DNA of 64,000 nucleotides, from the NCBI GenBank assembly GCA_963760365.1, contig CAVXDC010000012.1, forward strand, positions 2,475 to 66,474. The letters are read 5' to 3'. Every line of letters starts with the position of its first letter. Positions within the stretch are counted from its first letter, which is position 1. The notes below the pieces were generated by a model, which worked only from the letters and a program-made list of their open reading frames with translations, was not told the origin of the DNA and made no database searches. The translations under genes and the position numbers were made by a program. This DNA comes from an uncultured Phycisphaerae bacterium. GTDB lineage: Bacteria > Planctomycetota > Phycisphaerae > SM23-33. Of this stretch, positions 38,853-58,354 are shown piece after piece.

Positions 38853-38867
38853 ATTGTAGGGTGTGCA

Positions 38868-39748: not shown

Positions 39749-39805
39749 GTAGTGCCTCGATTTATCTTTGCTGTTTCTCTTTACATCGTTCAGGTAGTTG
39801 CGTAG

Positions 39806-39830
39806 GGCGGGAGAATCGTTTCCCGCAGCT
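39806..39830. repeat. GTAGGG-hairpin element, copy A (gtagggcgggagaatcgtttcccgc)
   Basis: Matches copy B at 40886-40910 in 22 or 23 of 25 positions. Sits between the two low-GC islet genes. Confidence 0.6.
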
Positions 39831-39845
39831 AATGAGACACTGGCC

Positions 39846-40885: not shown

Positions 40886-40910
40886 CAGCTTGTAGGGCGG
40901 GAAACTCGTT
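40886..40910. repeat. GTAGGG-hairpin element, copy B (gtagggcgggaaactcgtttcccgc; perfect 9-bp stem)
   Basis: gcgggaaac-tc-gtttcccgc palindrome preceded by GTAGG, at the far boundary of the low-GC islet. Confidence 0.6.
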
Positions 40911-40924
40911 TCCCGCGGAATCCC

Positions 40925-42218: not shown

Positions 42219-42271
42219 CGAAGCTCTCCACATCTTTTAATTCTATCGTCGCCGTCGGGACCGCCGCGGGG

Positions 42272-42997
42272 TCACGGGTTGGCCGGTTGCGTCGTCGGGA
42301 CAGGTGCGGCCGCGGGGGCTATCCGGGCGGGCTGGGTGGCGAGGTAGGCGTTCACTTGGGCCAGGGCCTGGTTGAAGAGGCGGTGCTTGTCGGCCGCGCT
42401 GCCGGCGATCATCGCCTGCTCGCGGGCGGCGGTGAGCAGGGCGGCGACGCGGGCCTTTTGCTCCTCGCTCAGGTCGTGCTTGGCGGTGATGTCGTTGTAG
42501 AGCAGCTTGGCCCGGCCGTAGGTCATCTTGTCCTTGACGGTCTCGATCTGACCGGATGAGAGCACCTTGCCCAAGTCGGCCAGCAGCGCCTCGCGCATCC
42601 GGGCCAGCTCATCGTCCAAAGCCTTCAGCTCGGTCTGGAGCTCTTTGGCCCCAGCCTCGGCGCTATCTTTGGGGGCCTTGGCCAATTGCCTTTCCAGCTC
42701 CTTGATCTTGTCGTCGTTGGGCTCCCAGGCGATCCGCTTGACGTAAAAGGCCGTCATCACGGCCCGGACCTTGGCCTCCTTGGCCGGGTCGCCCAGGGCC
42801 AAGGCCTCCAGGATGCCGGCGGCGGCCTTGTCGGCCGTGGCCTTGATGGCGTCGGCTTCGCTGGCGGCCTGGGTGGTCGTGGGCTGAGTCGTCTGCTGAC
42901 TTGCCGGCTGGCTCGTGGCCTCCGCCAGCGCGATGGACGCCGTTGCCAACCCCGCACCCCAAACGGCCAGACACACCGTGAACGTCCACTTGCGCAT
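42272..42997 (-). CDS. Hypothetical secreted or periplasmic coiled-coil protein
   Basis: Signal peptide MRKWTFTVCLAVWGAGLATASIALA with a Thr/Gln-rich linker. The computed ORF start at 43123 is an artefact that runs into tRNA-Ser. Confidence 0.45.
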   Translation of the reverse strand: MRKWTFTVCLAVWGAGLATASIALAEATSQPASQQTTQPTTTQAASEADAIKATADKAAAGILEALALGDPAKEAKVRAVMTAFYVKRIAWEPNDDKIKELERQLAKAPKDSAEAGAKELQTELKALDDELARMREALLADLGKVLSSGQIETVKDKMTYGRAKLLYNDITAKHDLSEEQKARVAALLTAAREQAMIAGSAADKHRLFNQALAQVNAYLATQPARIAPAAAPVPTTQPANP

Positions 42998-43079
42998 CGT
43001 GCGATCCTTTCCGAGCTCTAGCGCCCGTCCGAAGGTTTTTTCATCCTCATTGGCCGGTGAGTGCCCAGCCAATAGCGAA

Positions 43080-43166
43080 CGGTAGGGGTGGGATTCGAAC
43101 CCACGGTACCCTTGCGGGCACACCGGTTTTCAAGACCGGCCCGATCGACCGCTCCGGCACCCTACC
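43080..43166 (-). tRNA. tRNA-Ser (anticodon TGA)
   Basis: The reverse complement folds as a class II tRNA: acceptor GGTAGGG/CCCTACC, anticodon arm CCGGT-CTTGAAA-ACCGG (anticodon TGA), long variable arm, T arm GTGGG-TTCGAAT-CCCAC, discriminator G. CCA is not encoded. Confidence 0.9.
43122..43166. repeat. Left copy of a 45-bp direct repeat (5' half of tRNA-Ser); putative island boundary attL
   Basis: accggttttcaagaccggcccgatcgaccgctccggcaccctacc. An imperfect copy with 42 of 45 matches lies at 58128-58172 in the same orientation. Confidence 0.7.
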
Positions 43167-43360
43167 ACAGTAGTCACAGGACCCGCATCTGACGGGCCTG
43201 AGATGCATTTCAGCCGCGTCGGACGGGCCTTCTCTGCATATCGTCCAGCTCGCCGCTTTGTCCCACCGCAACCCACCGGAGCACATGGCAACCCACCCCG
43301 TTGGGGGCAGTCCGGGGGGCAGTGGAGCAGGCAGTCGAGCGGGCAGTAAATCGCCGCCAC

Positions 43361-44164
43361 TCATGCCCCACCCGTTCCAGTCCTACCAGATTCTACCAGC
43401 GCAGGCTTTGCACACAAGTCCGGCAGCCGGCTCAGGGCGTCTACTTCCTGCTCTTGGAGGACGTGGGTGTAGCGGTCCATGGTCAGGGTGATGGTGCAGT
43501 GGCGGGCCAGGGATTGGGCCACGCGGGGATGGACTCCTCCCCTGGCCAGGTTAGTGATGAACGTGTGCCGCAGGGCGTGCCAATCGGCGTAGCGGCCGTT
43601 CTGATCGCGATACGGAATGCCGGCGGCAGCCAGGTCGGTCTGGAGCAGGCCGGCCCGGGCATTCTTGGAGCGTGGAAGGGAGAACGCGGGGCCGTCAGGC
43701 ATCTTGAGCGCCAGGGCCTGCTGGAGCTTGGTTACCAGCTCGGCTCGGAGCAGGACTGTGTCATCACGGCGGTGCTTGGAGTACGCCGCCCTGACCACAA
43801 GCCATGGCGGGTCGGCCTCGAAGTCGAAACTCCCCCGCGTCAGGGACATGATCTCGCGGACACGCAGCCCGGTCTCCAGGGCCAACTGATAGACCAGCGC
43901 CCGATCCGTCCCGGACATGCCGCCACGATTGGGCCTGCTTGCTGCCGCTTCAATGAGCCGGCAACACTCCTCAGTGGATAGCGCCCTCCTGTCATGCCGG
44001 CGGTCCAGTCTGACGTTCTGGCCTGAGAGGCCCACCAGGGGGTTCTCGTTCGCTCGGCGCTCACGGACCATCCAGCGGCAGAACTGCTTGGCCGCCTGGA
44101 GATAGAAGTTGGCCGTCTGAATTGAGACGCTGGGCTTATCCTTGGCATAAGTAGCTGACGACAC
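43361..44164 (-). pseudogene. Tyrosine recombinase / phage-type integrase, N-terminally truncated
   Basis: Catalytic domain with the RHTF and RYTH-type residues (WHALRHTFITNLARGG...LTMDRYTHV). The ORF begins at a GTG immediately after an in-frame TAG, the region upstream is lower-GC, and at 267 aa it lacks the N-terminal arm-binding domain. It lies adjacent to the tRNA-Ser 5' side. Confidence 0.7.
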
Positions 44165-44452
44165 CCAAGGGTGTCTATGTGCCTAGGAAAAAGATAACCT
44201 GCCAGTTGAGAAGCATAACTCGCTGCGATCCAGCAGCTTGAGCAGGGTAGGTTCGTGTGCGCGAAGAGGAGCTTCAACGCGCATCGCGCACGAGCTTCGT
44301 TCCGGTTCTGTCTGCACAATCCTTCGATCCACCCAGTTGGAGCTCATGATCCTGCAACCCTGGTATTACGAGTCGTTTGGTATCTGCCTAGGAACAGTCG
44401 CGAAGGGAAATTCCGGGCAAGAAAGGCGTGCGATCGTTGGCCGGTGCGCCCG

Positions 44453-45739
44453 TCACTCCACGAGCCGATTCCACGCGTCGGGATGAGGTCCGGACGCCCC
44501 CGGCAAGGTCACCGGGTCGGTGAGGTTCGTGATCCTCTTGTCTTCGTGAACCGCCGCGCCGCCGGTGAGGCTGACGTTATTGGCTACCACCGCCCCGCAG
44601 AGCTGGGAGCCGCTGGTGATCTGCACGTCCGCGCCGGGGGAGAGGATGACGCCCTCCGTGCTGGTGGTGCTGTTGCTCAGTTGGACCGGGCTGGTCCCCA
44701 GGTTGATGAACTTCAAGCGGGATAGGTCCGAGCCGCGCACGACGTTCGTCGCGCGGTCCCGAATCTCCAGGCTGCCTTTACAGTACAGCGTCAGGGACGC
44801 CCCGGGGAGGACTTCGATGCCCGATCCGTTCCAGATGTCGACGCTCCCTTCGGCCAAGATGATCACGTTGCCGCTGATCTGGACCCTGGTGCTGGACTCG
44901 ATCGAGAGATTGTCGACGTGAAGGTTTCCGCTGATGACAAAGGGTCCGCTGCCTTGGTAGGACCGGTCACCCACGCTGGAGCCCATCCCTGTGGGGGCGG
45001 CTGGGGTCGAAATCGCCAATGGCTGGGACATGGCGCTCACGGTCCCGGTGATGGTGCTGCCTCCGTCCTTGTGGACGACCACGTTGGGGTCGCCGGACGG
45101 TCCGATCGCCGCCGAGCCTTGAATCCGCGCGTCCGAGGTCAGGTAGAGGCCGCTGGGCGCGGTGGAATTAGTGGCCACAAACGCTTCGGCTCCGACATTG
45201 GGCCCACCGTATGCCCCGACGCCCGAGTCGTAACTGTCGATGGTGGAATTGTCCACGAAGATGGTGCCCAGCGCGCTGACTCCGCTGACAATCTGGACCG
45301 ATGGCATCGTCATGTGCACGCGCAGGGAGTAGCTCGCATCCCCGACGGTCCCCATGGCAAAGACGGTAAAAGGTGAAGTGGGGTCGTTGGTCAGGTCTCC
45401 ATCGGCCTCGTCCACCAGCCGCCAGGTGAACGTCCCCCGCCCCAGCGACTTCCCGATCGTCTGCTGACTGTACGCCGACCGCCAGCCATCCGTCTCGTCG
45501 ATCTGCGCCAGGGCGTGCTCGACGGCCGAAAAGGCCAGCGATTGCGCCTCCGACCAGTCCTGCGAACCGCCCGTGGACCGGGCCTGGACCCGGCTAACCG
45601 TGACAGCCCCCAGGCCGATGACCGTGAGGATCACGGCCATGCCCAACACCAGCAGGTAGATCGAGCCCCGCCGTCGGTTCGTGCGGACCCGGGGGAGACC
45701 AACGGAATGGCACCGGAGGCAGGGGTAGGGCATGGGCAT
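44453..45739 (-). CDS. GspK-like minor pseudopilin (large, beta-rich)
   Basis: RRRGSIYLLVLGMAVILTVIGLGAV is a GspK-type N-terminal helix (no Glu at +5), followed by a long Ser/Gly/Thr-rich beta-strand repeat region. Confidence 0.55.
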   Translation of the reverse strand: MPMPYPCLRCHSVGLPRVRTNRRRGSIYLLVLGMAVILTVIGLGAVTVSRVQARSTGGSQDWSEAQSLAFSAVEHALAQIDETDGWRSAYSQQTIGKSLGRGTFTWRLVDEADGDLTNDPTSPFTVFAMGTVGDASYSLRVHMTMPSVQIVSGVSALGTIFVDNSTIDSYDSGVGAYGGPNVGAEAFVATNSTAPSGLYLTSDARIQGSAAIGPSGDPNVVVHKDGGSTITGTVSAMSQPLAISTPAAPTGMGSSVGDRSYQGSGPFVISGNLHVDNLSIESSTRVQISGNVIILAEGSVDIWNGSGIEVLPGASLTLYCKGSLEIRDRATNVVRGSDLSRLKFINLGTSPVQLSNSTTSTEGVILSPGADVQITSGSQLCGAVVANNVSLTGGAAVHEDKRITNLTDPVTLPGASGPHPDAWNRLVE

Positions 45740-46379
45740 TCAAGGACCTCCGGCCGGGATGACGTTCAACAGGTTGGCGCCCGAGTACGCCCGGGTGCTG
45801 CTGTCGCTGCCGATCTGCAATTCCACGCCGACCCACGCGACGCACGTGATCGGGGAGGCCGGCCTGACGTCATAAACGCCCGCCTTGCTCCGCAGCGCCA
45901 CGACGGTGGTCGACACGCTCCTGGGGTCGGTGACGATCACCGAGATGCGCTTGACCCCGCGATCCGTCGTACCGCAGGGGGCCATGGTGTCCGGGTCGAT
46001 GTGCTCGACCGTGACCTTCCGTGTCCAGCCTGCCAGCCCGGGAATCGCGCGCCCGTCCCTGAACTGCGGTGGCGATTCCGTCCAGTTGTGATAATCGTCC
46101 ACGTCGTCGAACTGCGCGGGACGTGCCTGCCTCTCCTGGCTCGGGCCCGAACACGCTTTGGCCGGACGGGTCCAGATAGAAGTTCTGGAGGACCTCCGAC
46201 AGGAGCTGGTTGGCCAGGCCCGTGGCAGTGTTCCGGGAGACATTCAGCTGCCGCCCTTTCGCCAGCGAGCCAAACGTGTTGAGCACCATGGTGATCAGGA
46301 CCGCCAGGATCACGACGGAGATCGCTGCCTCCACGAGCGTCAGTCCACGGCGCCCGGACGATGACCCGTGAGGATTCAT
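45740..46379 (-). CDS. Pseudopilin (GspJ-like); an internal frameshift between about 46130 and 46240
   Basis: Prepilin-type N-terminus GRRGLTLVEAAISVVILAVLITMV. The C-terminal half (FDDVDDYHNWTESPPQF...) is in the adjacent frame. Confidence 0.5.
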
Positions 46380-46893
46380 GGGCAGGCCTCCGGGTCGCCC
46401 GATGGGCAGAACGCCAGCCATTGAATGTCCGCCGGCGTCAAGAGGGCCTGGGGAGACAACGTCTTGAGCAGGTAGGTCAGGCTGAACAGGTGCACGTCTT
46501 CGGCAATGATTGCGGCCGGCGAGCCGTTGACCTGGCGGGTGAGGGGGTCGCCCGGCGTACCGGACCAACTGTAGCGGATGGTCTCGGGCTGGCCGTCGCC
46601 ATTGCGGTCCGGCACGACCAGGGTGACGGCCTCGGCGGACTGTTGGCTCAAGGCCGTCGCCAGGCTCAGGTCCAGTGTGATCATCTGGATCGCCCGGCTC
46701 TGCCTGGACATGTTGTCAGTCTTGTCGGCCCCGCTGGACAGACCGCCATAGGCGAGGAACATGACGCCGACGATTCCGGCCAGGATGATCACGGCGATGG
46801 CCGTGCCGAGAACGGCCTCGATGAGCGTGAATCCCCCGTGGGCGTGGGTGGGTGCGCCGCGGCGCCCGTCCGGTCTGTGGCCTTGGGGTTCAT
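46376..46893 (-). CDS. Pseudopilin (GspI-like); a 1-bp frameshift in a G4 run at 46885-46888
   Basis: ATG 46891-46893 overlaps the upstream gene's stop codon (ATGA). After restoring one base the product reads MNPQGHRPDGRRGAPTHAHG GFTLIEAVLGTAIAVIILAGIVGV, a classic prepilin cleavage motif with Glu at +5. Confidence 0.55.
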
Positions 46894-47369
46894 TGGACCT
46901 TCACGTTTCCGGTGTTCTGGTCAAGCACGATAGTCCTCTGGAAGGAACCCGCCCCGACCACCACCTGCCCGCCTCGGTCCGGCAGCCCGTAGCCGTCGAA
47001 CGTGACGCTTCTGGACCCCTGGAAGTCCGCCGAGATGATGTCGGCATGATGGGGGGCCTCCCACAGACTGGCCACGTATTCGGCGGAGGCCCTCTCCAGG
47101 CTGCGTATGCCTGACAACCGGTACTCGTCGGTGTCGGGGTCGAACGTGACGACCCGCCGAACGCCGGTGGTCCAGGCGTTGTCACGGGCCATCGCCAAGT
47201 CCGCCGCGATGCGCTTGGCCGCCAGATCCGCTCGATAGAAATTGAGGGAGTCGACGTACCTGGGCATGGCGATGGCCGCAACCGTGCCCAGGATGCACAC
47301 GACGAGGACCGTCTCCAGCAGGCTGAATCCTCTCCGGATGAACTGGATGCTGTGGTCAAAGCGAGTCAT
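46890..47369 (-). CDS. Pseudopilin (GspH-like)
   Basis: MTRFDHSIQFIRRGFSLLETVLVVCILGTVAAIAMP. Confidence 0.65.
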   Translation of the reverse strand: MTRFDHSIQFIRRGFSLLETVLVVCILGTVAAIAMPRYVDSLNFYRADLAAKRIAADLAMARDNAWTTGVRRVVTFDPDTDEYRLSGIRSLERASAEYVASLWEAPHHADIISADFQGSRSVTFDGYGLPDRGGQVVVGAGSFQRTIVLDQNTGNVKVQ

Positions 47370-47564
47370 CCGATTCCGCCCTTTGTGGCGTTTCTGGGAT
47401 GCCCGTCTCCAGCCGCCCATGGCCGTTGGCGAGCCCGCACGGCGCCGGGTGTGACCAACGAGGAAGGCCCCACGGCGCTACAGGACGGACACGGGGCGGA
47501 GGCCTCTAGCGATCGTCTCGCCACGATTCGTCCGGCGCTGCTGCGCTCTGTCCAGAAAAGGACA

Positions 47565-48038
47565 TCAATAGGTGCTGTAGAGCTTCCCGGTGACGTCCAC
47601 TTCCGTAGTCGTGTTCGCCCTGATGTCGCCTGTGGCCGCGGTGTATATCCACCCGATCGTGGCCGCGTCGGCGGCAGCCACACCGCTCTGGCCCTTCCTA
47701 GCCCCCACGGGCAGAGGCGGAATCGTGCGGACATAGGGCCCGTAGATGAACACGGCGGTCTTGGTGGCGCTGGTCGCCCCGGCCTCGTTGGTGTATTGCG
47801 TAATCTGGGCCAGGAAGGTGGCGACGGCGGGGAACGCACCGACATGCTCAGCCGAATAGCGGTCAATGGCTTCCCTGAGCACCGCCAGGTTGCCGGACAG
47901 GGCCGCGTCGGCTGCACCGGCCGCCCCGCGGCTTAGCCTCGGTATGGCCACCGCCGCGATTAGGCCGATGATCACCACGACCAGCAACAGCTCAAGCAAG
48001 CTGAAGCCTTTACGCTCGCGCAAGTTCCGATGAGACAT
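47565..48038 (-). CDS. Major pseudopilin / type IV pilin-like protein (GspG-like)
   Basis: KGFSLLELLLVVVIIGLIAAVAIP is the class III signal peptide. About 157 aa. Confidence 0.8.
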   Translation of the reverse strand: MSHRNLRERKGFSLLELLLVVVIIGLIAAVAIPRLSRGAAGAADAALSGNLAVLREAIDRYSAEHVGAFPAVATFLAQITQYTNEAGATSATKTAVFIYGPYVRTIPPLPVGARKGQSGVAAADAATIGWIYTAATGDIRANTTTEVDVTGKLYSTY

Positions 48039-48179
48039 TTCTCCTTACCTCCTACTGGAGTAGCAGTCAAAATCTCGCTCCGCCAAGGTTCCACATCGCT
48101 TATCGACGCCCTGGCAAGCGGACTTTAGCACGGGGGGGAACCCTTCGAGAACCTTATGGGCCAGCAGGCTGGAGGAGGG

Positions 48180-48746
48180 TCACTCCTCGCGCCCGTCGGC
48201 ATTCACGGGCAACTCGAGGGTCACGCGAGACCCGTCCTCTGACACCAGGACGACCCCCCGTTCGCCCACTGAAACCAGTTTGAAGCCGTCGATCGTCTGT
48301 CCGAACCCCACGCAGGTATTGTCAATGATGGCCTGATAGCCTTTGGCGCCGACCATGACTGCCTTGAGGGTATGCTTCTGCATGAAGGCCTCCGCTGCGG
48401 ACCCGACGGTTCCTTTCACAGGGGGCTTGGAGGAAGCGGGCATCCAGTCCGCCGGGGGCTGGAAGGCATCGCGCATGTCGTCCGCCCGGAAGGGGGTGTT
48501 GGCGGTGGCCGCCTTGAGACGGCCGGCCAGGGCGTCTCCTGGCCTGTCGCCCACAGCGTCCGGCGTGTCAGCGGGCACAGCCGCAGGAGTGCCTGCCGGG
48601 GGTACCGCATCGATCCCGACGGCCGAGGCCAAAGCCCCCTGGGGGCCCGGAACGGCGGGCGTAGCCCGCAACCGGTCCATGAGAACAGCCGCCACGCCGA
48701 TCGCGCACAGCCCCATCAGGACCTTCTGTGTTTTCGAGAGGGCCAT
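48180..48746 (-). CDS. Hypothetical membrane-anchored periplasmic protein (possibly PilP/GspC-like)
   Basis: N-terminal TM segment (VLMGLCAIGVAAVLM), Pro/Ala-rich linker and a C-terminal beta domain. Its position between the PilO-like and GspG-like genes fits a PilP or GspC role. Confidence 0.35.
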   Translation of the reverse strand: MALSKTQKVLMGLCAIGVAAVLMDRLRATPAVPGPQGALASAVGIDAVPPAGTPAAVPADTPDAVGDRPGDALAGRLKAATANTPFRADDMRDAFQPPADWMPASSKPPVKGTVGSAAEAFMQKHTLKAVMVGAKGYQAIIDNTCVGFGQTIDGFKLVSVGERGVVLVSEDGSRVTLELPVNADGREE

Positions 48747-48799
48747 ACTTGAAGTAGAAGATACAACCGGGCTTGGGGCAAATGGGGGCGCCCTTTATC

Positions 48800-49336
48800 T
48801 TACGGACTGCCGGGCGCCTTGTCGGGGACGACATGCCAGACGAGGTCGACCTGGAACTCCGGCGGAGACGCCGAGTCGTCGTGCTTGCCGGACAGCAGGA
48901 ACGAGTCCACCGCCGTGTCCGGGAACGACTGAGACAACGTGTGGAGGAAGCCCGCCCAATCGCGATAGCCGCCGGTGCCGTTCAGACGAATCGGCACCGA
49001 TCCGGAGTTCTGGCCGTAGACGGGCTCGGCCGGTTGGACCTCATTCACCTTCAACCCATGATGGGCCGCCAGTTCCGCTAGCCGGCTGATCCTGTTGTTG
49101 ATCGCGCTGGCCGGCTCCAACTGGACCAAGCCCTGGGTCACGGCCTTTCGGACCTCCGAGAGCTTCTTCTTAAGGTCCTCAGCACGGGTCCTCATCAGCG
49201 CAATGTCTTTCTGCCGGCTCTCAAGCTGAGTCTTCTCAGCGGCGTGTCGGTCTTGCAGGTACAGGACGGGGCGCAGGCCGAACCAGAAGAAGAGGAACCC
49301 TGCCACCCCAGCCACCGCCAGGGCGGCCAGGTGCAT
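48800..49336 (-). CDS. PilO/GspM-like inner-membrane assembly protein
   Basis: MHLAALAVAGVAGFLFFWFGL TM helix, then a coiled-coil (LKKKLSEVRKA) and a periplasmic domain. The upstream extension of the computed ORF is low-complexity. Confidence 0.55.
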   Translation of the reverse strand: MHLAALAVAGVAGFLFFWFGLRPVLYLQDRHAAEKTQLESRQKDIALMRTRAEDLKKKLSEVRKAVTQGLVQLEPASAINNRISRLAELAAHHGLKVNEVQPAEPVYGQNSGSVPIRLNGTGGYRDWAGFLHTLSQSFPDTAVDSFLLSGKHDDSASPPEFQVDLVWHVVPDKAPGSP

Positions 49337-49395
49337 CCGGATATGCTTGCATGTTGTCAGCGGGCCGATCTTCACTGGACCGTTCCTCCGCAGTC

Positions 49396-49977
49396 CTACA
49401 GGGTGCACTCCAACCGGAACGCCATCGCCTGCTCGCCCAGGAACACCTGGCGAGTCGTCTTGACCAGCTTGACCTTGCCGAAAAGCCCCGTCTGCTCCAG
49501 TCGCAGCACGTAGGCGGAGACATCCGCCTGGGCCTTGGCCCATCCGCTCACCTCCAGCAGAAACGACCCGTCGGAGGCATCGGGATTGGCGGGGGACTGG
49601 CTGACGGGAGGAACCTTCTGAAGCCGGCATAGATCCAGGACGATCTGGTCCCCCAGGTTCTGGGCCACCGCCCTCAGCACGCTGCCCCAATCGGGCTGCT
49701 GCCCCACGGCCTGGGCCGCTTGCAGCTTCTGCCGAGCTTGGGCAAGCTCCACCGTCAGCACCAAAACCTGGCAACTGGACGCGTTCAGCCTGGCGGCCAC
49801 CGTCCTGATCTCGCTGTCCAGCGGCTTGCTGTCCAGGGCGACGTGGCGAATGCAGAGGAAGTACCCTACCAGCAGCGCCGCCCCATAGACCACCAGAGCG
49901 CTGGCCAATTTGAGCAGATGTGCCTTGTTCGCCTTGGCCTCGCGCCGGCCCAAAGGTATCAGGTTCACGCCGTTCAT
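49396..49977 (-). CDS. PilN/GspL-C-like protein
   Basis: MNGVNLIPLGRREAKANKAHLLKLASALVVYGAALLVGYF is a PilN-type N-terminus with TM helix and coiled coil. The start overlaps the PilM stop (ATGA). Confidence 0.6.
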   Translation of the reverse strand: MNGVNLIPLGRREAKANKAHLLKLASALVVYGAALLVGYFLCIRHVALDSKPLDSEIRTVAARLNASSCQVLVLTVELAQARQKLQAAQAVGQQPDWGSVLRAVAQNLGDQIVLDLCRLQKVPPVSQSPANPDASDGSFLLEVSGWAKAQADVSAYVLRLEQTGLFGKVKLVKTTRQVFLGEQAMAFRLECTL

Positions 49978-51053
49978 CAGTCCGCCTTCCAGGAGTACTG
50001 GGCCAGGCCTAGGGCCGGAATCAACGAGGGCCCGTAGGTCGCATTAATCGTTTCGGGGCACTGGCCCAGGTCGCCGGGGTTGACGATGCGCACCTCCAGG
50101 CCAAGTCTGGCGGCAAGGAACCCTTGCAGTCCCCGGATGCAGGCGCCGCCGCCGACCATCAGCAGACGCTTCACGAGGGCGTCCTGATACTGGCTGGCCA
50201 GGTACGCCAGGCTGGTGCGCACCTCCGCGGCCATGTTCTCGAGGTGGGCGGCCAGTGTGGTTGTGCTGCTACCCCCCTGGCCGTTGCCTGGACTCCCCGT
50301 GCCCGGCCCCGGATCGCCGGTGGGAAGCCCCAGGTTCTCCAGCCCTTCCGTGAAGAAAACGTGTTCCGTGGCGTCCACATCCGCGTTGCGTTCCGACGCC
50401 ACAAGGCGCACCATCGCCGCGAATCCGCTCTTGGTCAGGTCCCGCTCGTATACGACGGTGCCGCCGTGGAGCAGAACCAGCCGCGAGGACGCCCAGCCCA
50501 CATCCAGGATGGCCCCGGTGTGCTGCACGTCCGACAGGAGAGGCAGGCATGCCCGGCTGACGGCCATGGCTTGAACGTCCAGGGCTTCCACGTTCAGGCC
50601 CTCCCCCTCAACTAGGTCCAGGAGGCTCTCGGCGTTCGCCTGGGGGCATGCGACAGCCATCACGTAGGTTCGATTGGCCGCCCGGGCCGGCGGGGGCAGG
50701 TCCCAGCAGGCTATCTCAAGCGATCGCATGTCCACGTTGTGTCGGCGGGCCAACTCCGAGCAGGCAAGCTGTTTGATCGGAGCGCCCGAAGACCGAGGGG
50801 GTAGCTCCATGATCGCCGTCAGGATCTGGGTGGCCGGAACGGCCAGCACGATGGACTTGCCCCGGAACAGGTTCTTCCGCAGCGCCTGCGAGAGACGCTG
50901 GACTTCAGAGGGCTCCAGCGCGCCGTTGGAGCTCGTTCGCGGGACCCAGACGGCCGCCGTGATGCGAGAACCGACCACCTGGGCCGCCTTGATGTACCGC
51001 GAGCCGATGTCCACACCTATGATCGCGCGAGATGTCAGTGTCGGCCACCTCAA
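49977..51053 (-). CDS. PilM-like actin-fold ATPase (type IV pilus / T2SS inner-membrane platform)
   Basis: IIGVDIGSRYIKAAQV...LDVGWASSRLVLL...LMVGGGACIRGLQGFLAARLG. Confidence 0.8.
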   Translation of the reverse strand: MRWPTLTSRAIIGVDIGSRYIKAAQVVGSRITAAVWVPRTSSNGALEPSEVQRLSQALRKNLFRGKSIVLAVPATQILTAIMELPPRSSGAPIKQLACSELARRHNVDMRSLEIACWDLPPPARAANRTYVMAVACPQANAESLLDLVEGEGLNVEALDVQAMAVSRACLPLLSDVQHTGAILDVGWASSRLVLLHGGTVVYERDLTKSGFAAMVRLVASERNADVDATEHVFFTEGLENLGLPTGDPGPGTGSPGNGQGGSSTTTLAAHLENMAAEVRTSLAYLASQYQDALVKRLLMVGGGACIRGLQGFLAARLGLEVRIVNPGDLGQCPETINATYGPSLIPALGLAQYSWKAD

Positions 51054-52281
51054 GAGCCACCTCCGCCGGACATCATGCTCGTCACGTCGAACAACGGCAG
51101 AAAGATGCTGATGGCGACGAACCCGACCATCAGGCCCATCAGGATCAGCAGGACCGGCTCAACGATGCTCGTCAGCGATTTCAGGGCCAGTTCGTTCTCG
51201 TCATCCAGGAAGTCGGCCAATTCCAGCAGCAGCGGCCCGACCTGCCCGCTCTGCTCGCCGCTGCGCATGGATTCGTAGACCGACGGGCTGATAAGGTTCG
51301 TCTCGCGGAAGGCTGAGCTGACGGGCTCCCCGTGGCCGACGGCCTGTTCGGCCTTGGCCAGGAGGGCGGCGTAGTGAACGTTGCTCGTAGCGCCGCGGGT
51401 GAGGGACAGGATGTCCTGGACAGGCAGATGGCTGTCGGTCAACAGGCCCAGGAGGCGCACGATCCGCGCCGTGGCGAAGTTCCTGAAGAGTTTGCCGACT
51501 TGGGGCAGGCGAATCGCCACCGTATCCACCGCCCGCCTTCCGGCCGAGGACTTGAAGTACTGCCGGGCCGCCACAGCCGCCGCGACGATCGCTCCCGCCA
51601 AAGCCCACCAGTACGTCCGAAGGCCTTCGCCGGCCGCGATAAGGGCGGCGGTGGTGGGCGGCAGCGGGGCGCCGATATTCGCGAACAGCTCGCCGAAACG
51701 CGGCACGACGAACAGCAACAGGGCGCCGAACACCGTCGTCGCCACGCAGCACAGCAGAATCGGATAGGTCATCGCCGCACGCACGGTACTCAAGACATGC
51801 ACGCGCTTGCGGGTCAGAACCGCCAGCCGGTCCAGTAAGGCCGTCAGCTTGCCGCTGCTCTCGCCCGCGGCGACCATCGCCCGGTACACCGAATCGAAGC
51901 ACTCCGGATGCGCCCCCAGGGCCTCCGACAGCGACAGACCGCGCTCCAGGCGAGTGGAGACGTCCTGGATCACCTGGTGCCACCAAGGGTCGCGCGCCTG
52001 GCGTTCCAGCGCCTGAAGACCCTGCGCCAGAGGCGTGCCCGATCGGATCAGCGAGTAGAGCTGCGCGTGAGCAAGGCCAGCTCTCGGAGCTGGCGGATGC
52101 GGCTGCGCGGAAGGTGCAGTCGCCACGTCTTGGCTGCCACCGCCCGCCCGGCCGGGGCGATGTCCGCGACAAACAGGTCCTGTTGGTGAAGCCGGTCCAT
52201 GGCCTCGCCCAGGCTGCCTGCCTCCACGACACTGCAGACCTCTCGACCCGTCTTGTCGAAGGCGCGAAACTCAAGCTTCAT
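51050..52281 (-). CDS. gspF: Type II secretion / type IV pilus platform protein GspF/PilC; a 1-bp frameshift near 52080
   Basis: N-terminal GspF domain (MKLEFRAFDKTGREVCSVVEAGSLGEAMDRLHQQDLFVADI) in one frame and the remainder (AQLYSLIRSGTPLAQGLQAL...three TM...second GspF repeat) in the adjacent frame. Confidence 0.85.
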
Positions 52282-52293
52282 GTCGTTGCCCCA

Positions 52294-54051
52294 TTAAGTG
52301 CTCGCCACCTGGACCTCCGGTCGCCTGGTGGCTGGCTGGTTCACTGAGCTCACCTCGCTATGCGTGGCGCTCAGTACCTCCTCCAGCGTCGTCTTGCCGG
52401 CCTCCGCCAGGACCAGCCCTTCCTCGCGCAGCGGCATCGCTCCTTGCCGGATCCACTCGCAGCGAAACTCCTGCGGCGGCACCCTCCTGTAAATCATGTT
52501 CCGCAGCTCCGGCGTGATCTCCATAACCTCGAAGATTCCCGCCCGGCTGTGGAAGCCGGTGTGCTGGCACTGCTCGCACCCGCTGCCCTTGCTGAAGGGT
52601 TTGTTGACCTGTCCGGTCAGGCCGGCGTCGCGCAGGACGACGGCGTCGGGGTAGTAAATTGTCGTGCAGTTGGGGCAGTTTAGCCGCACCAGCCGCTGCG
52701 CGACGACCCCGTTCAAGGCCCCAGAGAGCAGGTACGGCTCCACGCCCATATCCACCAGCCGGGCGACCGCGCCGGGGGCGTCGTTGGTGTGCAGCGTCGC
52801 CAGCACGAGGTGCCCCGTCAGGGCCGCGTGCACCGACACGCTGGCGGTCTCCTCGTCGCGGATTTCGCCGACCATGATGATGTCCGGGTCCTGCCGCAGG
52901 ATGCTCCGCAGGGCCCGCGCGAAGGTCATCCCGATGGCCTCCTGCACCTGGATCTGGTTGACCAGGTCCAGCTGATACTCCACGGGGTCCTCAACCGTGA
53001 CGATGTTGACCTCGGGGCTGCGCAGGGAGTCCAGGGCAGAGTAGAGCGTGGTGGTCTTGCCGCTGCCGGTCGGACCGGTCACCAGCACCATCCCGTAGGG
53101 CTCGCAGAGCATCCGCCGGAAACACTCCAGCGTCTCAGGGCGGAACCCCAGGTCCTCCATCCGGACCTTCAGGTTGGCCTTGTCCAGGATGCGGATGACG
53201 ACCTTCTCTCCCAGCAGCGTGGGCATGCTCGAGACGCGCAGGTCGATCTGTCGCCCCTCGGCCAGGATGCCCAGGCGCCCCTCCTGCGGCAGGCGCTTCT
53301 CGGCGATGTCCATCCTGGCCATGACCTTCACGCGCGAGACGATGGCTGCATGCATGTCCCCCGGCGGTTGCATCAGGTCGCGCAGCACCCCGTCGATGCG
53401 GTAGCGGACCCGCGTAGAGGCACTGTCCGGCTCGATGTGGATGTCGCTCGACCGGTCGCGGATGGCCTTGAGAAGGACCATGTTGACCAGGTTCACCACC
53501 GGGTTGCCCTCGCGAGGCTTGTCCAGGTCGATCACCGGACCTTCGTCGCTCTCGGCCGTGACCTCGGCTAGGTCTGACTCGGAGATGGAGGCAAGGACGC
53601 TCTCCATGTCCATCTTCATGGAGGCATGCTTCTTGATGAACTCGATGGTGTTGGCCTCCAGCGCCAGCACTGGGTGGATGTTGCAGTGGGTCAGCTGCCG
53701 CAGCCGGTCGATGTGGGGCAGGGACTGGGGTTCGGCCATCGCGACTGTCAGGGTGTCCCAGACCTTGAACATCGGTAGGGCCTTGAGCCGTAGGGCCTCC
53801 TCTTGGCCGATCAGCTCCAGCATCGCAGGGTCCGCCAGACCGGTGCGAAGCACGCAGCCGCGCACCCCCAGGTGCTTGGCTAGCACCTTGACGAGCTGCT
53901 CGTGGCTCAGCACCCCGCGAGAAACCAGCAGCTCACCCAGGAACTGCCCGGTGACCTTCTGCTCGGCCAGGGCCTGGTCGAGCTGTTCCTTGGACAGGAC
54001 ATTCTCCTGGACGAGGACATCACCGATCCGTATGGGTGCCGAAGCGGTCAT
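52294..54051 (-). CDS. gspE: Type II secretion / type IV pilus assembly ATPase GspE/PilB
   Basis: T2SSE_N domain, Walker A (GPTGSGKTT), Asp box, Walker B, His box and tetracysteine motif (CPNC...CEQC). Confidence 0.95.
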   Translation of the reverse strand: MTASAPIRIGDVLVQENVLSKEQLDQALAEQKVTGQFLGELLVSRGVLSHEQLVKVLAKHLGVRGCVLRTGLADPAMLELIGQEEALRLKALPMFKVWDTLTVAMAEPQSLPHIDRLRQLTHCNIHPVLALEANTIEFIKKHASMKMDMESVLASISESDLAEVTAESDEGPVIDLDKPREGNPVVNLVNMVLLKAIRDRSSDIHIEPDSASTRVRYRIDGVLRDLMQPPGDMHAAIVSRVKVMARMDIAEKRLPQEGRLGILAEGRQIDLRVSSMPTLLGEKVVIRILDKANLKVRMEDLGFRPETLECFRRMLCEPYGMVLVTGPTGSGKTTTLYSALDSLRSPEVNIVTVEDPVEYQLDLVNQIQVQEAIGMTFARALRSILRQDPDIIMVGEIRDEETASVSVHAALTGHLVLATLHTNDAPGAVARLVDMGVEPYLLSGALNGVVAQRLVRLNCPNCTTIYYPDAVVLRDAGLTGQVNKPFSKGSGCEQCQHTGFHSRAGIFEVMEITPELRNMIYRRVPPQEFRCEWIRQGAMPLREEGLVLAEAGKTTLEEVLSATHSEVSSVNQPATRRPEVQVAST

Positions 54052-54383
54052 TGGCAGCTCCCCACGGCCATATCCACGTCTTGGCAGTGCTCAAAAAGCG
54101 GCGCCAGTTCTGTCAACTCCAGGACTTCTGCAAGGGTTGCGTTGGCGCCGGCCAGCTTGAGCATGAGGCCCTGTTGGATCATCCGCTCGGCCGCCTCCGC
54201 GAGAACCTCCAGGCCGCGGCTATCGACAAACAGGATCCCCGATGCGTCCAAGACGATCCGGGGAGGGCTTTCGTCCATCGCCTTGGCCAGAACGGCCTTG
54301 AGCTCCTCGGCGTCGGCCGCAACCAGCAGACCGCGAGGCCGAAGAATAATCACATCGCCTTGTCGCGTGCTCTCGATTCTCAT
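54048..54383 (-). CDS. STAS-domain protein (anti-sigma factor antagonist, SpoIIAA-like), first gene of the secretion/pilus operon
   Basis: ILRPRGLLVAADAEELKAVL...LVLDASGILFVDSRGLEVL. The stop overlaps the gspE start. Confidence 0.75.
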   Translation of the reverse strand: MRIESTRQGDVIILRPRGLLVAADAEELKAVLAKAMDESPPRIVLDASGILFVDSRGLEVLAEAAERMIQQGLMLKLAGANATLAEVLELTELAPLFEHCQDVDMAVGSCQ

Positions 54384-54835
54384 GTCGTGCCGCGCCGGCC
54401 CCCAAGGCCGGCTTGTCCTGATGCCTCGTGTGACGGTTCCGAACGTACCGACAGCGTCGCCGTGTTCTCGAGGGACGAGCGCCGCGGGCGCCGCCGCAGC
54501 CCCGTCCGACGACGGCGACGGTTACACGGACATCGCGATTTCATCTAGAACCATCGGTCGGCCTTGACGCAACTTGAGGAGAAACATCGGCTTCTCGATC
54601 ACCTTCGAGCCGCCACACCTGCGCCCGGCCGTGGGCGCGCGGGCAACTGGCTGACCTTGGGGACCCGATCAACGGACGGCGGAAGGGCGACACCACGCAG
54701 GTACTCGGGAGCTACGCTGACCGGATCACGGCCTGGCCCTCCAAGAAGCGCCGCGAAATCGCCCTTAACTCGACGTGGTGGGGTCTCCAGGAACACAACG
54801 ACCGCCAGGAACGGCGGTCGTGTGCAAAGCTTATA

Positions 54836-54900
54836 GATGGGGTGGGATTCGAACGCATGACCCGCCGGTTATGAGCCGACTTAGCCAGCCATCCTGAACC
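54836..54900 (-). pseudogene. Partial tRNA-Met-like fragment (anticodon arm CAT plus T-loop and acceptor 3' strand; no matching 5' half)
   Basis: Reverse complement ...GTCGG-CTCATAA-CCGGC GGGTC ATGCG-TTCGAAT-CCCAC CCCATCT A. The T stem has mismatches and no complementary 5' acceptor strand could be found. Confidence 0.35.
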
Positions 54901-55173
54901 GCCGCCAGAACGCCTGCCCGATCCAGAAACGAACGAGGCCCTGGGCATCGAGCCTAGGACCTGCGTCCCGAGTAGCATAGCGGGGGCGCGCTCGCTACCG
55001 CTTCACCTGAGAGATGCCTTCTGGGAGAGATGGGGCACGGCGGCGTAAACCGGGGCAGATGTTGGGATAGTGCACCCAACGACGTCGCACCTACGACCAT
55101 CTACGGACCGACAACACGAGGCGTCTGTCCGAAGTTTGAACCGATCGCGCTAGCATTCGTTCAGGCCGCCGTT

Positions 55174-55560
55174 TCAGAACACGCCTGTTTGGAGCAAACC
55201 ATCCCCCGCCTCAAATGAACTGCGATACCAGGCCGGGTCGGCTGGAGCGGCCCATTCGAAGCCGGTGCCGGGCGTGCCGTCGTAGCTGATGTAGCGGCTG
55301 ATCTCTCGCCAGCCCAGCAGTTGCCTGGCTGCCCCCGCAGCCGCGGCGTCGCGCGGGGTCAGTGGCTTTCCGGTCCCCGCCTCCCAACCCTCGCGGAAGA
55401 AGGCCCACGCTGCATGACCGGCCTCGACCATGCCCAATGCGGACCCCAACTGCATGGCCGAACAACCAACTCGGCACATTTCCAGATCAAAGAAGCCCGT
55501 GAACCGCCCTTGCTGGACGTGCAGGTTGGCGACGTCCTGGTGGCACAAGATGCGAGGCTG
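55174..55560 (-). pseudogene. Phosphotransferase (APH/choline-kinase family) C-terminal fragment
   Basis: ILCHQDVANLHVQQGRFTGFFDLEMCRVGCSAMQLGSAL resembles the APH catalytic-loop region (LCHGDLHPGN...IDFE). The N-terminal lobe is absent and that space is occupied by the methyltransferase gene. Confidence 0.4.
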
Positions 55561-55619
55561 CGCCGGGCGCGGAGACGCCGCACGGCGAACGACTCCTTTC
55601 TCTCTCCGATGCCCATCCG

Positions 55620-56453
55620 TCAATCGCCGGCCAGGCGGGCCCAGATCGTGAGCCAGGGCGGGGCGTAGGCCTTGAAGTGGTCCCAACTGCCCGGCCGGGC
55701 ATCGAGGCTACCGGCATCTTGCTCCCACAGGCCCTGCACGACAAAGCCGCGCCGAATCAACCCATTGACCAGGGTTCCTAGCGTGTGGCGGAACTCGCGT
55801 GGCCCGTGGATGCGAACCGTAGGCAGGCTTTCTTGAGGCTTCTGTGATTCCTCGCTGCCTGGCTCGGGCCGGTCCCAGGGCGCCACATCCCAGAACGGCT
55901 GGGTGTCGATCTCTCGGCCTTCCACGTAAGGGTGGATGACCACGTAGCCCGCACCGTTCCAACTATCTTGGTCCAGGCCGTGGGCGAACGGATTCCAGCA
56001 GCTCATACGATATTGCCCACGGGGCCGCAGGACGCAGCGGACCTGGCCGAACACGACATCGGCGTCGGGTACGAAGTTCAGGGAATGGGCATGCCACACC
56101 ACGTCGAAGCTGCCCGGACCAAAACACGAAAGGTCGCGCATGTCTCCCTGGATGGTCCGAACGGTCTTTCCGTAGTGCTCAGCCGCCTGGCGGTCGCGAG
56201 CCAGCTGCGTGTCGCACAGGTCCAGGACCGTCACGTTGGCCCCCAACAGGGCAAAGGCAGCCGACTGCTGCCCGCCTCCGCCAGCCAGACACAGGACCTC
56301 CCGCCCCGCCGGGTCGTCCATCATGCCTTCAGGGTCCACAAGCTTGCGGGCGGAGGTGGCATCCAGGTTCAGGGCGGGGCGTGAGAATATGACACCTGCC
56401 TTCGCCAGTTCTTCCCACCGTTCCTTATTGAATCTTGCCAGGCCGTCCAACAT
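55620..56453 (-). CDS. Class I SAM-dependent methyltransferase
   Basis: Motif I region (VLCLAGGGGQQSAAFALLGANVTVLDL), post-I Asp, motif II (IQGDMRDL...FDVVW) and motif III (LRPRGQY). Confidence 0.7.
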   Translation of the reverse strand: MLDGLARFNKERWEELAKAGVIFSRPALNLDATSARKLVDPEGMMDDPAGREVLCLAGGGGQQSAAFALLGANVTVLDLCDTQLARDRQAAEHYGKTVRTIQGDMRDLSCFGPGSFDVVWHAHSLNFVPDADVVFGQVRCVLRPRGQYRMSCWNPFAHGLDQDSWNGAGYVVIHPYVEGREIDTQPFWDVAPWDRPEPGSEESQKPQESLPTVRIHGPREFRHTLGTLVNGLIRRGFVVQGLWEQDAGSLDARPGSWDHFKAYAPPWLTIWARLAGD

Positions 56454-56586
56454 GTGGCACCTTCGAACAACTTATCCTGGCCCTTGCGGAATTGCCCGTG
56501 TTTTCCGGGCGTTTCCTCTGGGGTACATATCCCGGCCGCGCCCCGCCGATGGGTTGGAGCCCCCCTGAGTCCATGTGAAACGGTCA

Positions 56587-56665
56587 CTAGCGGGGGTGGG
56601 ATTCGAACCCACGACCTCCGGGTCATCACCTCGACGAGCCAACAACGGCCGCCACTAGCCTCTGC
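56587..56665 (-). pseudogene. tRNA-like fragment (perfect T arm plus acceptor 3' strand; upstream part does not fold)
   Basis: Reverse complement ends ...GAGGTC GTGGG-TTCGAAT-CCCAC CCCCGCT A. Candidate 5' acceptors pair poorly and a full cloverleaf could not be built. Confidence 0.3.
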
Positions 56666-57025
56666 GTTTTCACCTTGGACACCGGCGGTATACTGGAACA
56701 TTCCCGTCCAACACCCGGTACCCGCTCAAACTATTCCCCCTAGCGGGTCAACACGGGCCATCTCGGACGATTCCCAGATAGACGTTCGGGAATACCAAGG
56801 ACTCATACGTTGGAGAGTTGGGTGAGGAAGTAACACGGCGATAAGGTCATCATCGCCCCCAGCCTGGATGCCTTGCCTTTACCCAAGGCCGCGAGCCTGG
56901 ACACACCAAGGCTGAGGAGGCTAAAGATGCCAGCAAGCCACATCTCTTAGTCGGTGTTGTGAAGCCTGAGGTTCGCAGAGACACCGATTACCAACGTCAG
57001 AAAATGTCGCGTCTACCCTGGGATA

Positions 57026-57400
57026 TCAGCATTTGTCTCGAGCCACATACCTTGTCAGGCACAGTTTCAACAGCAGCACCGCTGGCAGGCCGGTTTGTCG
57101 CCGGGCGAGGTTAAGCCGGCCGATCACGTTGTCGTCCAGTAGTACGCGGACAAGCTTGTCGGCCAGGACCTCACCCTGGAGCCCGAACTGCCGGAGTTCC
57201 TGAACCAGCCCGGCTAACTTGGCGTCCAAAGCTTCATCCACCACCCACCGGATCGCCTTGGCGTCGCGTTGGCCTCGCCACTTGACCGCCCGCCAAAGGG
57301 AAGTAGGTAAGCGGATCGTGCGGTGGAACAGGGGCAGGCGTTTGTCCTCGTCGCAACTGACGGTCTCACATGGTCTTGTGCTCATTTCTCGCACCTCCAA
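57026..57400 (-). CDS. Ribbon-helix-helix (CopG/Arc-like) DNA-binding protein, possibly an orphan antitoxin
   Basis: KRLPLFHRTIRLPTSLWRAVKWRGQRDAKAIRWVVDEALDAKL matches the RHH beta-alpha-alpha pattern (TIRLP..LW..VK......S....IR.VV.EAL). Confidence 0.4.
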   Translation of the reverse strand: MEVREMSTRPCETVSCDEDKRLPLFHRTIRLPTSLWRAVKWRGQRDAKAIRWVVDEALDAKLAGLVQELRQFGLQGEVLADKLVRVLLDDNVIGRLNLARRQTGLPAVLLLKLCLTRYVARDKC

Positions 57401-57546
57401 AACCAGGGAATCACGCGTTTAATTCTCTGTCAATATGTCCACAATTAATACCCCCCGGCCCTGAGCCTCGGAGAACGATCTGAAGCCCGCTGGTCTGTGC
57501 ACAGCAGATCGGCGGGCTTTTTCTTTGGGGTGGCGGAACAGGTGAC

Positions 57547-57969
57547 ATGGCGGAAGAGATCGAGAACGCGATTCGGCAGAACGCCGAGGGACCGGAGTCG
57601 GCCGAGGAGGACGGCGTTCGAATGAAGCAGCACCCGCTCCCCGACCAGATCGAGGCCGACAAGTACCTGGCCACCAAGGAAGCGGCGTCGCGCAATCCGG
57701 CCAAGGCGTTCACCCGCGTCAAGATCGTTCCGCCCGGCGCCGTTGAGGCGCCCGCGGTGAGCGGAGTTGAACCGCGGGACAAGAAGAATGGGACTTCCTT
57801 CGACAGGCTCAGGATGAATTGGCCCTGGATAAGGCGGAAGAAGGTGCAGGCCGCCGGCCAGTTGATGTTCGTACGCGCCCGGTTCTACGCCGCGCAGACC
57901 ACGCCGGACAACCGGAAGCACTGGTCGAACGCCGACCATCTCTCGAGCAACGCCAACCGCACCAGCTAG
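57547..57969 (+). CDS. Hypothetical protein (acidic N-terminus, basic C-terminus)
   Basis: Intact 140-aa ORF inside the putative island. No confident family assignment. Confidence 0.35.
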   Translation: MAEEIENAIRQNAEGPESAEEDGVRMKQHPLPDQIEADKYLATKEAASRNPAKAFTRVKIVPPGAVEAPAVSGVEPRDKKNGTSFDRLRMNWPWIRRKKVQAAGQLMFVRARFYAAQTTPDNRKHWSNADHLSSNANRTS

Positions 57970-58127
57970 GCCGAGTTCGCCCGCTGGGCAATGGTCAAGC
58001 TCATGAGGTGGCTGCCCGCGAAGCTCGACCCTGTGCGGTATGTGGTGTCGGAGGGGCAGCCGGACAGGCAGTCGGCTTAGTGAGATTCACAAGAGCCTTC
58101 GCCGGCCGGGACTTAAGGAAGTCAGCA

Positions 58128-58172
58128 ACCAGTTTTCAATACCGGCCCGATCGACCACTCCGGCACCCTACC
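58128..58172. repeat. Right copy of the 45-bp tRNA-Ser 5'-half direct repeat (putative attR)
   Basis: accagttttcaataccggcccgatcgaccactccggcaccctacc has three mismatches to 43122-43166. The flanking sequence is unrelated to tRNA-Ser. Confidence 0.7.
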
Positions 58173-58354
58173 CGCCGGTGCAATCCGGGGCATTTTCGAC
58201 CTCAGGGGGTGGGTTTTTCAGCGTTTTCGACCGGCTGGGGCGCTGTTAATCGCTGGTGGCAGCCGATGGGGGGCCTGCTCATGCCGACACCTTGGCCTCC
58301 TGGGAGTTCTGGAAATGCGCGGCTAGCTGCACTAAGCTCTGCGGCACGTTGCCT

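Follow-up and report, generated by a model that had tools for sequence, protein, structure and literature searches.

Here we report that a 15 kb interval in the genome of an uncultured Phycisphaerae bacterium is in all probability an island that integrated through the 5′ half of a serine tRNA gene, tRNA-Ser(TGA). The interval occupies positions 43168-58127 of a 64,000-nt stretch of contig CAVXDC010000012.1 (assembly GCA_963760365.1; the whole stretch is hereafter the window), and is most likely a decayed integrative element of the lambda-like prophage kind. Its borders are marked by two copies of the first 45 nt of the tRNA gene, only one of which has kept the ancestral upstream region, and a related genome carries the site without the insert. 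The interval also contains a 12-gene operon resembling type II secretion system (T2SS) and type IV pilus (T4P) genes, which we are inclined to regard as a later arrival rather than as the original cargo of the element.

Results

The 5′ part of tRNA-Ser(TGA) is duplicated across the interval

The intact tRNA-Ser(TGA) gene lies on the minus strand at 43079-43167; it is one of three tRNA genes called by ARAGORN in the window, and scores 57 bits with the Rfam tRNA model (43080-43166). Its first 45 nt (43122-43166, minus strand), comprising the 5′ strand of the acceptor stem, the D arm, the whole anticodon stem-loop and one further nucleotide, constitute the left attachment (att) copy within the functional gene. 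The right att copy, a displaced version of the same 45 nt with three mismatches (42/45 identical), is found on the same strand at 58128-58172. An earlier note, made from this DNA alone, had pointed out this repeat, and we find that it is the sole recurrence of the 45-mer in the window and that none of 100 dinucleotide-preserving shuffles contained a match. The note was also right that the second copy is not another tRNA: neither ARAGORN nor a permissive Rfam search calls a tRNA at 58 kb, and a variable arm and T arm are absent left of 58128, beyond the orphan 45-mer. In tRNA terms, one mismatch puts a U in the D loop, one an A at position 32, and the third makes a G-U pair in the anticodon stem; all three could reflect either decay or natural polymorphism between host and element.

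Relatives for comparison were found by a genome scan with the flanking PGI, which places the organism among Phycisphaerae-like planctomycetes, the best matches being metagenome-assembled genomes at 85, 82 and 81% PGI identity. The closest relative found (L001) has an empty site, in which a DUF3826 homolog, an intact tRNA-Ser(TGA) that is 97.7% identical to that of the window, and pgi are contiguous. In the window these outer genes keep their orientation, but the tRNA and pgi are 15 kb apart, and everything between the att copies is absent from L001. The insertion bounded by duplicated tRNA-Ser sequence that the note had proposed is therefore matched by an allele in which the tRNA is followed directly by the pgi region, albeit in one genome. 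The host flank 3′ of the tRNA is the DUF3826 gene (42272-43000, minus strand; PF12875, E = 3e-25), which has its homolog at the same position and in the same orientation in L001; its true start probably lies below 43000, because the listed open reading frame (ORF) runs into the tRNA. The opposite host flank is pgi (58420-59820, plus strand; PF00342), with 84.4% nucleotide identity to L001.

A four-way alignment assigned each upstream flank to its source. The 5′ flank of the orphan fragment (58173-58260, minus strand) is that of the L001 tRNA-Ser, and is thus the native upstream (promoter) region of the original gene. The 5′ flank of the intact tRNA (43168-43360, minus strand) is unlike this native region, and instead matches the spacer between integrase and tRNA at two loci in other genomes (L081 and L082), with 78-79% nucleotide identity over ~1 kb, integrase included. 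From the origins of these two flanks we infer that the functional tRNA-Ser is a chimera, its first ~45 nt and upstream region having come from the element and the remainder from the host, with the ancestral 5′ part displaced to the far border. The element-derived upstream region presumably carries both a replacement promoter and the P arm of the attachment site.

A truncated integrase belongs to a family with two orientations on tRNA genes

A truncated tyrosine integrase gene (43361-44164, minus strand) lies 194 bp from tRNA-Ser. Its PF00589 catalytic domain is complete (E = 8e-16), with the R...HxxR...H...Y motifs seen in the translation, and its C-terminal ~257 residues are homologous to full-length relatives of 410-460 aa, of which the N-terminal ~160 residues have no counterpart here. 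As the alignment to the closest full-length relative (P0001, 82%) begins at residue 161 of that protein, corresponding to position 44143 of the window, the integrase remnant that the note had described as lacking its N-terminal region is indeed just that. With this part the protein has lost its arm-binding domain and the greater part of its core-binding domain, and the missing piece is nowhere else in the window. Proteins at least 90% identical to the integrase stub, and to the GspE of the operon described below, occur on other metagenome contigs (11-102 kb). One of the integrase matches is 267 aa long, equal in length to the window ORF, for which reason the decayed state may be common to a population.

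The arrangement of integrase followed by tRNA-Ser on one strand recurs at five further loci. In L082, tRNA-Ser(TGA) lies on the same strand 185 bp after the integrase, and L081 has the same layout up to its contig end. A third locus (L083, 60% identity) has tRNA-Ser(CGA) at the same position and on the same strand, and in two others (L170 and L171), picked because their ORF tails translate sense tRNA-Ser, the integrase is again followed by tRNA-Ser(TGA) on one strand. More distant members (L084-L086, 55-57% identity) have a tRNA (Ser, Ser and Arg, respectively) on the opposite strand overlapping the 3′ end of the integrase, which is the classical orientation. Among the top 120 integrase homologs, the ORF tail runs through a sense tRNA-Ser in 6 and through an antisense tRNA in 25. 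A quick, unbootstrapped neighbour-joining tree was star-like; the window integrase formed a clade with P0001, P0002 and P0005, and the other sense-type members were scattered, weak evidence that orientation may have flipped more than once in this family. Elements with related integrases carry a primase or DnaB gene, an HTH_17 Xis-like gene and the integrase, and none of them has secretion genes.

Two features of individual family members deserve mention. In the classical-orientation loci the called integrase ORF spans the whole antisense tRNA gene (L084, 11280-11367; L085, 11088-11176; L086, 11233-11306), so that the C-terminal tail is encoded antisense to the tRNA, and integration would alter the integrase C-terminus. 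In L170 (2933-7642), what follows the same-strand integrase and tRNA-Ser(TGA) on the host side is a HEAT-repeat gene, then a DUF7305 gene and a pair of small genes on the opposite strand. This DUF7305 cluster also adjoins tRNA-Ser, although on the other side from that of the window, which may be coincidence.

Searches of viral sequence for the element gave little. IMG/VR scans with the integrase, both as a single sequence and as an alignment, returned relatives at no more than 45% identity, none with tRNA-Ser, and a pattern scan of IMG/VR for a free attP carrying the tRNA-Ser 5′ part gave no match; likewise, no deposited phage genome matched the full-length integrase P0001.

Phased repeats lie at both ends of the element

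Four ACTGCC repeats with exact 12-nt spacing (43306-43347, minus strand) lie between the integrase and the tRNA, and a GCTGCC and an ACTGCC at the same 12-nt spacing (58055-58072, minus strand) lie 56 nt past the att copy at the other end. These are the only two phased ACTGCC clusters on the minus strand of the window. The L081 and L082 loci each have three ACTGCC copies at identical spacing, and in L083 another decamer, CTGGCCGTCA, occurs as two copies spaced by 12 nt. In lambda-family integrases it is the N-terminal domain that binds arm sites, and the repeats are probably arm-type integrase binding sites, the right-hand pair being putative P′ arm sites. On this reading, both borders of the 15 kb would be authentic element ends.

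The interval outside the operon is a mosaic

At the right end of the interval, an ORF on the plus strand (57547-57969) appears to be the 5′ stub of a phage portal gene. It joins a small phage protein of ~80 aa to the beginning of a lambda-family portal protein, and is cut short at about codon 136. Neither PHROGs nor Pfam matches the stub directly. The identification comes from its homologs: the first half matches small proteins of ~80 aa, and the longer homologs (P0242, P0262, P0269 and others) carry the portal domain PF05136, whose start in the best of them (P0242, 66% identity with 97% of the query aligned) coincides with the end of the window ORF. Immediately upstream of this ORF (57482-57520) is a strong hairpin with a 17-bp stem followed by a T-run, which resembles a terminator on the plus strand.

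The two partial tRNA fragments that the note had listed are present, and both are att scars of the classical 3′ type as judged by the parts that they retain. One (54834-54880, minus strand) consists of an anticodon arm (CAT) and a 3′ half with a decayed T stem, and the other (56588-56626, minus strand) is the 3′ half of a tRNA with a short variable loop and a perfect T arm; the two are 79% identical. Two scars of this type imply that at least one other tRNA-targeting element was once active in the interval. The methyltransferase and the phosphotransferase (APH) remnant were likewise recovered, the former as a class I SAM-dependent enzyme (55620-56453, minus strand; PF08241 and PF13649) and the latter as a C-terminal remnant (55174-55686, minus strand) matching PF01636 over profile positions 151-234 of 239 only. 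By contrast, an ORF of 124 aa (57026-57400, minus strand) that the note had named a ribbon-helix-helix (RHH) protein resembles one by eye only, with no support from Pfam, PHROG or the PDB. The interval as a whole is a mosaic of a prophage stub and the scar of at least one other tRNA-targeting element; insertion and decay, as claimed in the note, are supported, but a single mobile element is not demonstrable.

Composition gave no foreign signature. A sequence composition unlike that of the host is common in tRNA-targeting elements but not obligatory, and the tetranucleotide distance of 43-58 kb, a check that the note had proposed, is within the normal range of the window, whose outliers are at 38-42 kb and 17-20 kb.

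The operon is of a standard Phycisphaerae type

The 12 genes of the T2SS/T4P-like operon (44453-54383, minus strand) were identified with Pfam and by gene-by-gene tblastn comparison with the corresponding operon of another Phycisphaerae genome (L088). In the direction of transcription these encode STAS (54048-54383), GspE (52294-54051), GspF (51050-52281), PilM (49977-51053), PilN (49396-49977), PilO (48800-~49390), a hypothetical protein (48180-48746), a pseudopilin (47565-48038), a GspH-like protein (46890-47420), a second pseudopilin (~46376-46834), a minor pseudopilin (45740-46568) and a DUF7305 protein (44453-45739). The operon thus holds an assembly ATPase (GspE/PilB), a platform protein (GspF/PilC), the PilMNO alignment complex and pseudopilins, in agreement with the genes named in the note. 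Its description of the set as complete-looking does not stand. Neither an outer-membrane secretin (GspD/PilQ) nor a prepilin peptidase (GspO/PilD) is among the 12 genes, or in the L088 operon, and these genes may lie elsewhere in the genome. In addition, gspF (1-nt deletion at ~52063) and the minor pseudopilin gene (split at ~46120) are frameshifted in this assembly.

The two frameshifted genes would fit a redundant, decaying copy. They are also possibly indel errors of the assembly, because the gene for RNase E/G (1482-3631), a housekeeping enzyme outside the island, looks frameshifted as well, with the start of its S1 domain in the frame of ORF 1482-1826 and its catalytic domain in the frame of ORF 1523-3631. 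A codon-usage Viterbi segmentation of reading frames was too noisy to give the frequency of frameshifts in the window, as it split the continuous acrB ORF, and it served for picking candidates only.

On the evidence of its relatives, the STAS-GspE-GspF-PilMNO-pseudopilin-DUF7305 unit is a standard Phycisphaerae operon. Homologs of GspE at 65-76% identity number in the thousands across the class, and two genomes (L087 and L088) have the same gene order in surroundings of glycoside hydrolase, sulfatase and transporter genes that include neither an integrase nor a tRNA. Compared with these two operons, GspE is 73-76% identical at the amino acid level, the whole operon ~70% identical at the nucleotide level, and gspE 77-78.5%, which falls in the range of 77-84% nucleotide identity of pgi and acrB to L001-L003. 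The neighbourhood of the operon differs in every relative examined. A metagenome scan with GspE yielded, among the matches listed, mostly paralogs at 40-48% identity and no close contexts. Exact look-ups of the GspE and the PGI of the window gave no recorded match. The operon borders show no insertion sequence (IS), repeat or other rearrangement signature, and the ~290 bp junction between integrase and operon (44165-44452) contains neither a repeat nor a tRNA fragment.

A different cluster of this kind was seen in a more distant relative (L055, 142-9334), where pgi is followed directly by two to three gspE paralogs, at 40-42% identity to the window GspE, and one gspF. This group is another T2SS/T4P-like cluster, on the other side of pgi.

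Discussion

We propose that a tyrosine integrase recombined an element with the host gene for tRNA-Ser(TGA) at its 5′ part, namely the first 45 nt through the anticodon stem-loop, of which the attP of the element would have carried its own copy. On one side of this attP would have been the integrase gene, the upstream region and the four 12-nt-phased ACTGCC arm-type repeats, and on the other side the two further repeats. Integration would have produced a working chimeric tRNA-Ser, with the 5′ part and upstream region of the element joined to the 3′ part of the host, while the original 5′ part of the host gene, its native promoter region still attached, would have been pushed 15 kb away to a position beside pgi. 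Such a mechanism would be the mirror image of the usual 3′-end integration. The element would later have lost its function, as the N-terminal ~160 residues of the integrase are gone, only a 5′ stub is left of the portal gene, and no excisionase or replication genes remain in the interval. Current excision is unlikely, because the integrase is truncated and a gene for Xis is absent. We regard the element as a prophage of lambda-like order because the integrase at the left end reads leftward and the portal stub reads to the right end.

Several observations weigh against this interpretation. L001 is the only genome found with an empty site, as the DNA preceding pgi in L002 and L003 is unrelated. 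No complete relative with both att ends was recovered: in L083 no distal repeat of the 5′ half was found within 10 kb, and the L081, L082, L170 and L171 sequences stop within the element. The mismatches between the two 45-mers fit decay and polymorphism alike, and for this reason they do not locate the crossover point. Finally, a sigma-70 promoter scan, whose coverage does not extend to planctomycete promoters, found no site upstream of either tRNA copy, and because no promoter is recognisable ahead of the chimeric tRNA, its supply by the element is an indirect deduction.

How the operon came to lie between the att copies is less certain. The earlier note had taken it as island cargo, which is not established, and for the element that made the repeats this claim is more likely wrong than right. 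We lean, with modest confidence, towards an operon that was not the original cargo and that would have come in later, brought by a nested element or through relocation of a native operon. The operon is lineage-typical and found in ordinary chromosomal contexts, its composition is not foreign, it has diverged like the flanking core genes, and it is absent from the related integrase elements. Moreover, the integrase is truncated on the side that faces the operon, ~300 bp from the operon end, and beyond the opposite border of the operon there are foreign att scars. Of the two routes, arrival with a nested element is possible, but we would not call it probable.

Alternatively, the whole 15 kb could be one island integrated via the tRNA-Ser 5′ half, with the operon as its original cargo and a single later deletion having removed the integrase N-terminus and the neighbouring module. 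We consider this doubtful, although several observations speak for it. The simplest reading of the L001 empty site, which lacks everything between the att copies, is that the operon entered with the element, and this counts against our preference for a secondary arrival. One deletion would explain the junction between integrase and operon; the lost N-terminal piece is not found beyond the operon, contrary to what a simple insertion into the integrase gene would leave; the operon borders are free of rearrangement signatures; and the two frameshifted genes suit a redundant copy in decay. Against a single island stand the lineage-typical nature of the operon with its host-like composition and divergence, the primase or DnaB, Xis and integrase content of the closest elements of this family, and the two unrelated att scars, which show that other elements were active in the interval. 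The portal stub also points to a phage, and a host-type operon of 10 kb would be unusual cargo for one; the frameshifts lose their force if, as RNase E/G hints, they are assembly errors.

Relocation within the genome, which would leave only ~5 kb of truly foreign DNA, is an equally tentative proposition. The host's own operon would have moved into the prophage remnant by rearrangement, for instance through recombination between prophages or att scars, or through paired inversions. The composition and divergence of the operon match the host, its variable neighbourhood suggests that it is prone to rearrangement, and the junction at 44144-44452 has no att-like feature. However, neither border of the operon bears an IS element, a repeat or any other mark of rearrangement, and at least two breakpoints would be needed within a 5-kb remnant while the outer synteny of DUF3826, tRNA and pgi stayed intact. 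An origin of the operon other than original cargo, nested element or relocation seems improbable.

Two explanations of the repeat itself can be set aside more firmly. A classical 3′-end integration followed by an inversion or rearrangement that mimics a 5′-half duplication might be suggested by the distant family members of classical orientation, whose tRNA is antisense and overlaps the 3′ end of the integrase. Yet it is contradicted by the one-strand order of integrase, spacer and tRNA, which L081 and L082 conserve down to the nucleotide sequence and L083, L170 and L171 conserve as a layout, and by the ancestral orientation, relative to L001, of both the DUF3826 gene on the 3′ flank and the native promoter and pgi on the 5′ flank; we consider it very unlikely. 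That the second 45-mer is left over from a tRNA-Ser duplication, a pseudogene unrelated to mobile elements, or a chance match has only the occurrence of tRNA pseudogene fragments in many genomes in its favour, and is effectively refuted by the shuffles, by the position of the fragment at the exact place of the L001 tRNA with the upstream region of that gene, by the upstream region that the intact copy has in common with integrase loci in other genomes, and by the phased repeats at both ends.

The preferred reading, integration through the 5′ half of tRNA-Ser, can be compared with several known systems. Classical tRNA-targeting tyrosine integrases reportedly cross over at the anticodon stem-loop, in what is said to be a symmetric sublocation class. 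As in these, the identity block described here spans the whole anticodon stem-loop and reaches one end of the gene, the integrase adjoins the att site, and putative arm-type repeats flank the core; in contrast, the block reaches the 5′ end and not the 3′ end, and it is the two small scars at 54834-54880 and 56588-56626 that are of the classical type. A lambda-like prophage typically has attL, an integrase reading outward, early genes, and the W and portal genes reading towards attR. The integrase stub at the left end of the interval reads to the att site and the small-protein-plus-portal stub reads to the right att, in keeping with this layout, but nearly all phage genes are gone and the structural genes are reduced to one stub of ~136 codons; no deposited phage genome matches, and no IMG/VR contig does so at useful identity. 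The operon, for its part, has the same genes in the same order as those of L087 and L088, from which it differs in lying between the att copies of a mobile-element remnant and in its frameshifted gspF and pseudopilin gene.

The note had called the duplication of the 5′ rather than the 3′ part of a tRNA unusual. This duplication is real, and it is typical of the closest relatives of the integrase, but it is not new in kind, having been documented since 2002: PMC6563490 describes recombination at the 5′-distal part of tRNA genes as "considerably less frequent" than at the 3′-distal part, and cites several cases (Zhao & Williams 2002, J Bacteriol 184:859; Krupovic & Bamford 2008; Krupovic 2010; Gaudin 2014; Cossu 2017), the first of which is also in the reference list of PMC1635311. 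As in these "reversed target orientation" integrators, it is the 5′ part of the tRNA gene that is duplicated here; from its place upstream of the functional tRNA, the element must provide that part and, presumably, the promoter. One of the elements described there, CalSub-E1, resides in the 5′-distal region of a tRNA-Ser gene of the archaeon Ca. Caldiarchaeum subterraneum (PMC6563490), and thus shares the target of the present element. Compared with the published cases as the citing text presents them, what differs here is the planctomycete host, the integrase family with both orientations on tRNA-Ser, and the decayed, mosaic state of the copy.

What the present locus adds is a bacterial (planctomycete) example of the 5′ type with its empty site and both arms, together with a family of integrases in which tRNA-Ser is targeted in either orientation. 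The occurrence of both orientations on the same tRNA species within one family bears on how integrases change their target sublocation, and the full-length relatives P0001 and P0002 are testable in vitro. On a practical level, island finders that expect 3′-end repeats would miss elements of the 5′ type. If the operon is truly mobile, it would show that integrative elements can carry envelope machines of the kind typical of Phycisphaerae. As a speculation, which we think rather unlikely to hold in full, a planctomycete integrase clade may have repeatedly flipped the half of tRNA-Ser that it carries by way of the symmetry of the anticodon stem-loop, with 5′-type elements taking over the transcription of an essential tRNA by supplying its promoter, and such an element or a nested partner having mobilised a whole 10-kb T2SS/T4P-like operon between Phycisphaerae.

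Other observations in the window

On the host side of the island, 2-4 kb from tRNA-Ser, a low-GC patch at 38800-41000 (GC ~0.50-0.56 versus 0.65) is the strongest tetranucleotide outlier of the window. Its two ORFs (38960-39910 and 39846-40559) have no Pfam match, and the patch may be another foreign insert. In the LarA-like ORF (40731-42233, with a Lar_N domain), codon usage switches frame near 41386 towards the frame of ORF 40925-41383, which encodes 152 aa without a Pfam match; either a frameshift or a gene boundary could account for the switch. The second tetranucleotide outlier (17000-20000, GC 0.60) extends in part over a ~4.4-kb coding segment (13863-18323, minus strand).

Further from the island, tRNA-Leu(CAA) (13683-13768, minus strand) has an exact 23-nt copy of its 3′ end (GGGTTCGACTCCCGCCTCCGGCA) ~100 nt downstream, the whole region spanning 13581-13768. 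A degenerate copy resembling an anticodon arm precedes the 23-nt repeat, and the arrangement resembles a classical att scar with almost nothing between the copies. The DNA beside this tRNA, at 12.36-13.86 kb, has no coding signal.

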